Below, piece by piece: positions 9,724 to 12,700 of a DNA stretch of 64,000 nt; position 1 is the first letter of the stretch, and every line of letters begins with the position of its first letter. Source of the stretch: a virus; IMG/VR virus record IMGVR_UViG_3300032288_004617, positions 1-64,000 of that record; one strand, written 5' to 3'. The notes beneath the pieces were generated by a model that searched no databases, was not told the origin of the DNA, and was given only the letters and a program-made list of their open reading frames with translations. The position numbers were made by a program, and so were the translations under genes.

Positions 9724-12700
9724 TTAACATGCATATAAAGCAGAAGTTTTTCCATTTGGATCTGCTTTCTTTGAAGTTTTCTTTTTACTACTTCCTTTTT
9801 TACTAGAAGTATTAACAGGTGTAACTGTTTGTAAATCAACTTTTGAATAATCAAATCCTAATTTAGGAGAATGAAATGGGTTTAAAACATCAATATCAAC
9901 TGAGATTTGATTCTTAACAATTTCCTCCATAGGATTAGAACTATTTATCCAATCTTCTACGTTGTAAAAATAATTAATAGCTTTTAATTCTGCAAGTTTC
10001 TTGTTGAAAAACTCATCATTTAAATTATTAGTTCCAAATGATATAAAAGCTTCTCCACTTTTCTTGATGTCTATTCCATTTTCAGCTAAGAATTTATTTA
10101 GCTTATTAATCTTTTCTGTAACTGTTATATTTTCATTATTATAAATAGACTCAAAAACATCAATGTTACTAATTTTATCATACCCAACTGACACTGGATA
10201 AGCAACTCTTTTTCCACCAACTTCTAAAACTACAAAAGGAATCTTCTCTTTTGATTTTTTACTAGTAAGCTTTGTTAAATATGTTGTATCAACAGCTTTT
10301 CTATCTCTTGTAAAGGTTTTACCTCCTTCAATATATCCTATATCTTTAACTGCCTTAATCTGTCCTTCAGAAAGAGTTTTACTCTGAATAGATATAACTC
10401 CATCAGCTGTCATAGTGTAGTTATAAGTAGGATGACCAAACTTAACTTGATTAACTGTTATTGCAGCAATAGAAGGTTTACCATCTTTATTTATAACTTT
10501 TGGCTCTATAGCTCCTTTTGCTTTCAACAATGCTTCAATGTTCGCATCGTTATCAACAATTGCATTTCTAACATCTTCAAAGATTAAATCTTTTTGTGTC
10601 TTATTACCTTCAGATCTCTTCTTAAATGTAGCAACTACTTTACCTCCAACCTTCGCTAGGATTAGTAACTCTTTCTTTAATTTTGTTTTTGCTTCGTCAA
10701 TGTCTTTTCCAGCTTTAATAGCTTTTTTGTATTCAGCTATCAACGTTTTATTATAATCATCTCTAGGATCGATAGACATTGTTACAACATCTCCAGGATT
10801 TGTATTAAATGCTGCTTGTATATTGTGTCCTTGTTTATTATTAAACTCTTTTCTGAAAGTACTTTCAATAGGTTTTAATATTTGATTTCCGGCAACGTCT
10901 GTACCCACCTCTAGAAGAACACTGTAATACGTACTCATCTTTTGGTTTGTTGGAACAATTCTTAAATCTGTCTTCTCATTTATTTCTTTAATAAACTTAG
11001 CAGGAATTACAATATTGTTCTTAGAATCTCTTTCTACAGGAACATCTACTTTACCTTTAACATAAGCATTGAAAGCAGCCTCTGTTAGATAATGTATAGT
11101 TATTGTAGAATCTTCATCCTCAGAGCTTCCTTGATAAGAAATAAAAGCATTTTGATATGTCAATCCATATCGGTAATTAGCATTGTTTATTCTATCAGCA
11201 AAATCCACTGCATCAATAGTATCTTCTGAAGTTGGAACAGAAACACTTTCAATAGGAGCAACAACTGTTTTCTCTAATACAATCTTTTGTTGTATCAAAT
11301 CACTCAACCTAAACCCCTCTACAACTATACCTGTAAGCATAGTCCATTGGTCAATATTATTCTTAAGTTTGTCCAACTCAATATCTTCTTCAGGTGTTAA
11401 TGTTCCATCTTCTTTTTTACGAAGAAGTTCATCATATCTCTTGAAATCTTCTGTTTCAAGTAATTTAAATCCTTCACCTAAAGTAGAAATCTCATCTTCT
11501 ATTTCCTTAATCCTATCTTCAATCTCTTTTAGTCTGTTCAAATTATCTTCCTGTTCAGTGTCACTGAACGTAGCATTTTGTTGAACATTAACCATATTGT
11601 TTAACTCTTCGCTCAACAAGGATAGAGTACTATTAACATGATCATAGAAATCTTTAATATTTGTATAATTTCCAGCAGGATTTGTAGGTAAGTTCATTAT
11701 AGAATTAAATGCTTCTAAATCTTCTGTAGTTTGGTCTAAGAAACCGAAGTCTTCTTTCAACTTACCTTGGTTATTATCTTCTCTACTTTCTATACTTCCT
11801 AATCCTTCGTTTAAGATTTTTGTAAGCTTCTCAAACATTGGAAAATTATAGCTACTATTAATTTGATCCTCAGATCCTTTATTAATCCATCCACTAGAAA
11901 CTCCAATACCAAAAACTGCATACCAATCTCCGGCTTTTACATTTTTCTTACCTGCTTGTCCTGTACTAATGTAAAAAGGAATATTGTATTTTCCTATTTT
12001 CATCATAACCATTACTCTACCTGAGTAATCAACTATGTTGTACTCTTTGCCTTTTATAGTTATTGGAGATAATAAATTATTACTTTTTAACCATTCTAAT
12101 TTTGCAGAAGCAGTTGGTAATTTATCAAGTTCAGAAACAATATCAGCAACAGGTGTAGATAATAAATCTATTTTACCATCTGTACCTAATGCAGCAATCT
12201 CTTCATCATATTGTTTTTCTATCTCTTGAATTAATTGTTCCTTAGTACGACCTTCTTGTGGAACTTGGATATTTGAAACCTTTCCCATTTGATCCTTAAA
12301 GTATCCTTTATAAGTCCAAACTTTACCCCCATTAAAATCTTCACCTATTGAAGCTATAGAGTCTTGTTTTCTTTTTTCTATTTCTTCTTTTTGTACTTGG
12401 ATTGACTTATTGCTATTGCTATTATTTGGGCCTTGCTGCGTGGTGTCCCGTTGGCTCCCTTCGCCTTCCCCGTCTTCTTGTTGTCCGCTATCAGTTCCTT
12501 GATATTCGCTGCTACTGCCTTGTTCACCGCTGTCTTCTTTTTGCTGTTGCTTTTCTTTAATGGCATCTCTTTCTTCTTTTAGGTTATTTAATTCTTCATT
12601 TAATTTAGCTATCTCCTCTGAATTATCTTCAGAAGTATTTAAAATATTATCTAATTGAAATGTAATATCTTCTATTGCCTCATTTAATACATCTAAATTG

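Follow-up and report, generated by a model that had tools for sequence, protein, structure and literature searches.

The stretch of DNA analyzed here, hereafter referred to as the window, comprises the first 64,000 nucleotides (nt) of virus record IMGVR_UViG_3300032288_004617, which is 83.5 kb long and estimated to be 55% complete; the phage of the window occurs in freshwater lakes. The subject of this report is a small open reading frame (ORF) that lies wholly within a giant gene of the virion module and is read from the same strand in another register. The giant gene, which we call the host gene, occupies 9724..15585 on the minus strand and encodes 1953 amino acids (aa). The N-terminal part of its product falls in the phrog_32390 family and is 37% identical to a member of that family, the 'structural protein' gp039 of Cellulophaga phage phi17:2, and the giant genes adjoining the host gene match 'virion structural protein' PHROGs. 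No Pfam family matched the window host protein better than E=0.17, so that neither an LPD nor another polyvalent-protein domain was found in it; the protein ends in …LYAC. The small gene, at 12378..12566 on the minus strand, runs from ATG to TAG and encodes a 62-aa, phrog_2423/DUF6496-like protein with a strongly positive net charge (MPLKKSNSKKK...SQSKYKKKK in the ORF translation). Its ATG is located 3019 nt past the ATG of the host gene, which places it in the +1 frame. An initial annotation, made from the sequence alone, had proposed a very basic 62-aa ATG-to-TAG ORF in the +1 frame at this position and had quoted it exactly; its coordinates hold, with the correction that the gene lies on the minus strand.

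Across the dual-coded segment (12376..12567 on the minus strand, approximately host residues 1007-1070), the host frame encodes an acidic linker of Glu, Gln, Gly and Ser (DAIKEKQQQKEDSGEQG...SNKSIQVQKEE), which follows a coiled-coil-like run (…LNEELNNLKEERD). The guanine-plus-cytosine (GC) content is 0.49 at 12400-12549 and about 0.31 in the flanks, and the highest 150-nt GC value of the entire 64-kb window falls on the overlap (0.50; window mean 0.324, standard deviation 0.042). The initial annotation had described both a switch from coiled coil to an acidic, Gln-containing linker and a local rise in GC over the flanks; the former is visible in the translation, and the latter proved to be the strongest GC spike of the window.

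The small protein has numerous homologs. A search of a database of 5.8 billion protein sequences with the 62-aa product returned 63 matches at E<=0.1 (best 1.9e-14), all of them 47-82 aa long and 52-84% identical, and because this homologous family exists the ORF is not a chance frame. An alignment of 34 sequences that are 58-76% identical to the window's small protein (alignment A1) contained 14 invariant columns and gave the consensus MPLKKG.KNI..NIKEL.ADNKK.GKAKGANGKPRSR.QIIAIALS.AGK.KK. Among these 34 sequences, 21 matched PF20106 (DUF6496; best 3.7e-06) and 19 matched phrog_2423 (best 1.4e-11). The window's small protein carries QIIAIAIS at residues 47-54, of which Q47, A50 and I51 are invariant in A1, and we take the C-terminal 'AIA' helix motif to be a hallmark of the DUF6496/phrog_2423 family. 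These matches argue that the small protein belongs to the phrog_2423/DUF6496 relatives, transitively through its close homologs. An exhaustive profile search retrieved 245 representative clusters at E<=1e-3, with lengths of up to 271 aa among the 150 best matches listed; a large stand-alone family therefore exists, and the resemblance to stand-alone phage proteins of the MPLKKG..NI...QAVAIA type, which the initial annotation had offered from recall, is real, as the homologs and the PF20106 and phrog_2423 matches attest. Six family matches came from cultured phages, and all six are labelled 'hypothetical protein'. In a cultured-phage collection, the DNA around the site found no match, nor did a tblastn search with the small protein, which was probably masked by the low-complexity filter, and a sequence search of the PDB with the small protein matched no solved structure.

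The nested arrangement was found to recur widely. Scanning viral contigs with the family alignment yielded 80 loci of the 233 relatives found, and these split sharply into 24 nested-type and 56 stand-alone loci. The 24 nested loci had no stop in the frame set one base ahead of the small ATG, and in every case that frame belonged to a giant ORF (from 1097 to more than 3367 aa, in many cases truncated where the locus ends); local GC was 0.45-0.59 vs 0.30-0.51 in the flanks, and GC at the third positions of the small frame was 0.54-0.88. At the 56 stand-alone loci, the same frame held 2-9 stops and the composition equalled that of the flanks. A metagenome scan seeded with an alignment of nested copies gave another 80 loci, 31 of them nested (host ORF 1140-3014+ aa) and 49 stand-alone (2-10 stops), four of the metagenome copies being duplicates of viral-contig copies. 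To avoid ascertainment through the small frame, a third search was seeded by an alignment of host-frame peptides; all 14 loci that it confirmed carried an intact small ORF, and three of them were new, while a broader alignment of the host-frame linker was too poorly conserved to seed a search. The total was 59 nested loci including the window (58 others), 55 of them with distinct DNA, always in the same relative frame; nor was the +1 frame found broken in these relatives, the small ORF being intact in all 59. Of the 55 distinct copies, 52 start with MPL and the remaining three with MPI, MSP and MLA, and complete copies are 53-76 aa long. The closest relative, locus L102 on a 128-kb contig, has a host gene 83% identical to that of the window over residues 1-1134 and 69% identical C-terminally, and its nested ORF is intact, with the same start, stop and length of 62 aa and 82% identity to the window's by hand count. 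In all 10 nested-type phage records searched, two of which are 100% and 91% complete, the nested copy was the sole full-length copy; one record (G003) also holds a weak 18-residue fragment of the small gene (E 0.0015). As a separate observation, the copy at L011:6001-6231 has lost the usual stop and extends to 76 aa (…AKRKWYLLKKKQKEQETLLEHLR), and among the 54 complete distinct nested copies no other stands out clearly by its length.

Selection on the two frames was compared by position-specific variability and by the Nei-Gojobori proportions of nonsynonymous and synonymous differences (pN and pS). For the first 25 nested copies, nucleotide entropy at positions 1, 2 and 3 of the small frame was 0.71, 0.49 and 0.96, respectively; position 2 of the small frame is the third position of the host frame, and the host third position is therefore the least variable and the small-frame wobble the most variable. 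Over 300 pairs of copies, the small frame gave a pS of 0.567 and a pN of 0.241 (ratio 0.43), and the host frame a pS of 0.215 and a pN of 0.338 (ratio 1.57); the small-frame ratio was below the host-frame ratio in 300/300 pairs, and amino-acid identity was 67% in the small frame and 46% in the host frame. Because the 300 pairs are not independent, the differences were recounted on 27 disjoint nearest-neighbour pairs drawn from the 55 distinct copies, in which the small-frame ratio was again lower in 27/27 (pooled 0.25 vs 2.08 for the host frame, which by this measure looks passive) and differences at small-frame positions 1, 2 and 3 numbered 175, 113 and 345. Between the window and L102, pN/pS was 0.32 in the small frame and 1.05 in the host frame. 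As a flank control, we used 12 related loci with 240 host codons upstream of the overlap: the third position was the most variable there, with a host pN/pS of 0.63-0.68 and a +1-frame pN/pS of 0.87-0.95, and inside the overlap of the same loci the pattern was reversed (host 1.65, +1 frame 0.31). It must be counted against this evidence that pN/pS is confounded in overlaps, where each frame constrains the other's 'synonymous' sites, so that all of these ratios are to be read as relative. The direction of the frame contrast is unambiguous, and a frame-specific dN/dS comparison across relatives, carried out here as pN/pS, points to a conserved small frame under purifying selection.

These data also bear on whether the small gene is a relic, swallowed by a giant gene whose frame alone is functional and surviving either because the capture was recent or because the host frame constrains it. 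When the host protein was kept unchanged and synonymous codons were drawn for it at the frequencies used in its gene, the +1 frame was stop-free in 11908/20000 draws. Openness of that frame is expected from the composition of the linker, because acidic linkers seldom use codons with T in the second position, and it therefore adds nothing by itself to the case for a gene. A relic would thus be left open in 60% of such synonymous redraws, and it would also agree with the existence of relatives that do without the small gene and with a small protein known from its sequence. It would not, however, account for nested copies that have diverged to 51-72% amino-acid identity, at a pS of about 0.57, and yet retain start, stop and length in 59/59 loci, nor for the intact copies at all 14 loci that were found by way of the host frame. 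A least variable host third position and a host pN/pS above 1 are the opposite of what host-only coding would produce, and we regard a relic as very unlikely. That the ORF is more than chance is settled by its homology, to which the signature of selection adds.

The giant frame is also kept open across the overlap. No host-frame stop was present in any of the 59 nested copies, vs 2-10 stops in each of 105 stand-alone copies. Codons drawn from host usage to encode the unchanged small protein of the window left the host frame open in 0/20000 draws, with 11 stops on average. The wobble positions of the small gene are the first codon positions of the host frame, and T occupies only 1.3% of them in nested copies, vs 27% in stand-alone copies and 42% of the host gene's own third positions. 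The small protein has a mean net charge of +13.5, and the host peptide encoded by the same DNA averages -7.2; the charges are opposite because the code maps Lys codons onto Glu or Gln codons one base over. G or C at a small-frame wobble turns Lys (AAR) into Glu/Gln codons one base earlier, which explains the acidic linker as well as the GC spike. Judged from sequence, the giant frame is really read through, and both frames are maintained by selection; the proposal of the initial annotation that one DNA segment encodes an acidic linker and a basic peptide gains support from selection that is visible on both frames.

It could still be argued that the giant ORF is mis-joined, that is, that two genes flank an ordinary small gene and that the host frame between them is open by chance or through an assembly indel. 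Stand-alone copies are indeed often found directly downstream of genes for 1000-1600 aa, and in 6/54 stand-alone loci domains of this large neighbour recur in the C-terminal parts of nested hosts. Chance openness, however, was seen in none of the 20000 draws and in none of the 105 natural stand-alone copies, and the same frame is open in 59 independent contigs from different samples, with T almost absent from the small-gene wobbles. Since that frame is stop-free, a ribosome arriving from the upstream part must read through it, and an erroneous join of this kind seems scarcely credible.

With regard to initiation, the nested ATG sits at the position where stand-alone homologs start, and an in-frame stop precedes it by 1-20 codons (median 5; three codons in the window, where the open frame as a whole spans 66 aa). 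The A fraction at positions -20 to -1 was 0.57, vs 0.35 (standard deviation 12%) before other ATGs of the same host genes; A occupied position -3 in 45/55 nested copies, and a second ATG occurred within -20 to -1 in only 1/55. In the window, the 36 A-rich nucleotides ahead of the nested ATG (12567..12602 on the minus strand) would constitute a putative translation initiation region. Cultured relatives of these phages infect Flavobacterium and Cellulophaga, and in Flavobacterium johnsoniae, mRNAs are reported to have no Shine-Dalgarno sequence and A at -3 to favour initiation (PMC6847099). We also considered an internal promoter of the Bacteroidetes type, which found no support: the motif TAnnTTTG within 150 nt upstream occurred in 0/54 nested loci, against 8.7% of background windows. 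The absence of this motif favours internal initiation on the mRNA of the giant gene, and we infer that ribosomes start internally, at the conserved ATG on the late mRNA of that gene, to make the small protein.

A different route to the same peptide would be a frameshift, in which a +1 slip near the nested start, with termination 62 codons later, appends a basic tail to the N-terminal half of the giant protein. Programmed frameshifts that give two products are common in phage structural genes, and slippage might be favoured by the A-rich stretch that precedes the ATG. A Met start in 55/55 copies (MPL in 52 of them) at the stand-alone start position would be needless for such a product, however, and the close upstream in-frame stop leaves almost no room for a conserved shift site. 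Inspection of the upstream alignment by eye revealed no conserved slippery heptamer, and we consider a frameshift product highly improbable.

The relative age of the two frames was addressed by a tree and by orthologs of the host gene. When 25 nested proteins and 39 stand-alone ones were placed in a tree (56 columns, quick search; five stand-alone rows were dropped because they failed the start-motif filter), a branch with a Shimodaira-Hasegawa-like approximate likelihood-ratio support (SH-aLRT) of 92 separated all nested copies and two stand-alone copies, L024 and L039, from the remainder, and two label changes were needed vs about 20 in shuffles. Orthologs of the window host with the segment were found at L102 and L017/L083, and orthologs lacking it at L082, whose host is 44% identical to that of the window over the N-terminal 1000 aa, and in phi17:2 gp039; both of the latter have a short unrelated linker at that place. 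The large stand-alone family, the confinement of nested copies to one side of the tree and the orthologous giant genes without the segment together support the view that the small frame is the older and that the giant-frame linker is derived, that is, overprinting. The location of the small gene directly downstream of a giant gene sharing domains with the C-terminal parts of nested hosts (the 6/54 loci mentioned above) fits a big gene that grew over its small neighbour. The capture of a free-standing gene, as put forward in the initial annotation, is supported by the family, the tree and the insert-free orthologs; the description of that capture as in-frame is wrong, as the small gene is out of frame (+1). 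A stand-alone subgroup (L024, L033, L039, L041 and L046) shares with nested copies their characteristic long N-terminal extension; ahead of it lie a GC stem and a T-run resembling a terminator, and in the tree it falls with the nested clade. It may have left a giant gene in which it was once nested, or it may be the sister of the captured lineage.

The same comparisons leave some room for a more mobile history, in which the segment of about 200 nt is a dual-coding cassette that recombines between otherwise unrelated giant genes for virion or ejection proteins, supplying each with a ready acidic flexible linker, and in which the basic protein binds to that linker and enters the capsid, or the host cell, along with the giant protein. 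Mobility is hinted at by the 14 other nested hosts whose similarity to the window host is confined to the overlap plus about 15 residues before it, by the presence and absence of the segment among orthologs, and by the grouping of the window's small protein with the copies of another host family and not with that of L017. The 14-host pattern could equally reflect hosts too diverged to be recognized as related or a segment that travels among giant genes. We consider this mobile-cassette history improbable.

Little is on record about what the small protein might do; a literature search found no paper mentioning DUF6496, and the family is without a described function. In annotated phages, stand-alone copies belong to the head module. 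That of phage DSL-LC04 immediately follows the portal gene and precedes the major capsid gene, that of Enterobacter phage phiEap-2 is flanked by a head-morphogenesis gene on one side and the major capsid gene on the other, and at locus L062 the copy is 1.3 kb upstream of a major head protein gene; in Thalassomonas phage BA3, all neighbours of the stand-alone copy are hypothetical. Many stand-alone copies have genes for about 600 aa upstream of them, and a guess that these are portals went unsupported, three of them having given no PHROG match. Basicity and head-gene context hint weakly at a virion-associated, polyanion-binding accessory protein, a suggestion that we regard as tentative and rather doubtful.

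Taken together, these results make it very probable that the locus holds a true same-strand overlapping gene pair, in which the small gene is the older and the giant gene reads through it one base out of register. The starting state would be a highly basic phage gene of about 55 aa, normally standing alone in head or virion modules. In aquatic phages related to Flavobacterium and Cellulophaga phages, a giant virion-module gene would have come to run through this small gene one base off, its product using the overlap as an acidic low-complexity linker between the N- and C-terminal parts. The sequence of the small protein would be held by purifying selection while its wobbles are recoded to G, C or A with almost no T, a recoding that would clear stops from the giant frame, turn Lys codons into Glu/Gln codons and raise local GC. 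Initiation would take place internally at the nested ATG, presumably helped by an A-rich, Shine-Dalgarno-free leader of the Bacteroidia kind, and the small protein may work alongside the virion or head machinery as an accessory that binds a polyanion (DNA).

Several points weigh against this account. By itself, the window's small protein matches phrog_2423 at E=0.015, and it matched no Pfam family at E<=1 and no NCBIfam entry; the window copy is thus below family-model significance, and its family membership therefore depends on its homologs. The case for the small protein is drawn from sequence comparison, its proposed biochemical role from charge and gene context, and the argument for Bacteroidia-style initiation from cultured relatives rather than from the hosts of the uncultured phages themselves. 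Among sequencing runs, none of RNA was listed as containing the stretch, and four DNA runs yielded short fragments, with no contig spanning it. A single origin of nesting is compatible with the short tree and is not proven by it. No copy of the small gene was found anywhere in the complete 124-kb L082 genome (G001), and neither a nested nor a free copy was found in Cellulophaga phage phi17:2 or in the Flavobacterium elemo phage sampled (H1, MT497068), whose giant 3694-aa 'structural protein' gene matches the nested host L008 with 59% identity across 650 aa. The small gene is therefore dispensable for some phages.

The window contains further GC spikes, at 24301-24451, 29476-29676 and 36701-36901, of which the latter two were examined as possible nested genes and set aside, because the composition of the host protein explains each of them and no conserved nested ORF was found. 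The spike of 0.46 at 36701-36901 is attributable to collagen-like Gly-X-Y runs in a 414-aa protein with Cys-rich ends (36076-37320, minus strand; …GPAGAPGVNGTNGTNGIDGVPGG…). The spike at 29476-29676 is attributable to an Ala/Gly/Ile-rich hydrophobic stretch (…AAAGGVSSPAAVIIAGLAIAAYVIMAI…) in a 2318-aa virion structural protein (26026-32982, minus strand; phrog_37948, E=0), and this stretch looks like a membrane-spanning segment in a giant virion protein.

The overlapping gene pair has several implications. Gene callers forbid long same-strand overlaps, so that none of the 59 nested copies would be annotated; as the nested copy is the sole full-length one in several phages, this phage protein family is systematically under-counted. 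The pair would also be an unusually clean example of overprinting with a polarity, the embedded frame being old and the long frame the newcomer, with stand-alone homologs and insert-free orthologs available as controls, and models of the kind proposed for the polymerase spacer of hepatitis B virus (HBV) would become directly testable. The case further illustrates how a multidomain virion protein of giant size can acquire a linker, its gene extending across a neighbour that stays intact.

Phages offer classical cases of genes embedded on the same strand, among them those of phiX174 and lambda Rz/Rz1, and overprinting is the general theory of how they arise. Lambda Rz1 lies wholly inside Rz, on the same strand and in the +1 frame; the two products are known partners, and related phages show Rz and Rz1 both nested and separate. 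The pair described here resembles Rz/Rz1 in that a small ORF lies wholly within a larger one on the same strand in a different frame, here at 59 loci. We know of no broad stand-alone family of Rz1 predating its host gene; here, unlike in Rz/Rz1, the embedded gene would be the older and more widespread one, and the giant virion-module host uses the stretch only as a linker. In length, basic charge, MPLKK start and the motifs DNKK-G-K-G-G-PRS and QI(I/L)AIA, the small protein resembles the phrog_2423/PF20106 family, whose members on record are free-standing, unlike the nested window copy.

The host genes recall the polyvalent proteins of phages and conjugative elements (Iyer et al. 2017, PMC5512222), which are giant multidomain phage proteins. 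The window host protein differs from these in having no Pfam domain. The nested host at L009:4242-9998 carries an LPD38 domain at residues 1469-1621 (E 1.1e-08), and it alone did so among three other hosts scanned (L008, L009 and L002). Its LPD38 domain would place at least some nested-gene hosts in the polyvalent-protein class.

A closer parallel is offered by HBV. In the model of Pavesi (PMC8227390), a short gene located between two units was overprinted by the polymerase-spacer frame, which fused the flanking units into a multidomain protein. Both systems would thus involve a pre-existing short gene (preS/S in HBV) overprinted by a flexible spacer, with the linker frame being the less constrained of the two (PMC8227390). 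Unlike the situation here, where stand-alone homologs and insert-free orthologs give the polarity, the review on HBV states that phylogeny could not settle the polarity (PMC8227390), and the present overlap, of about 190 nt, occurs in a double-stranded DNA phage. Our literature search on DUF6496, embedded phage genes and polyvalent proteins found no account of such nesting. Relative to these known systems, the new elements are an embedded partner that is demonstrably older, a giant virion-module gene as its host, recurrence in dozens of divergent uncultured phages, and invisibility to gene callers.

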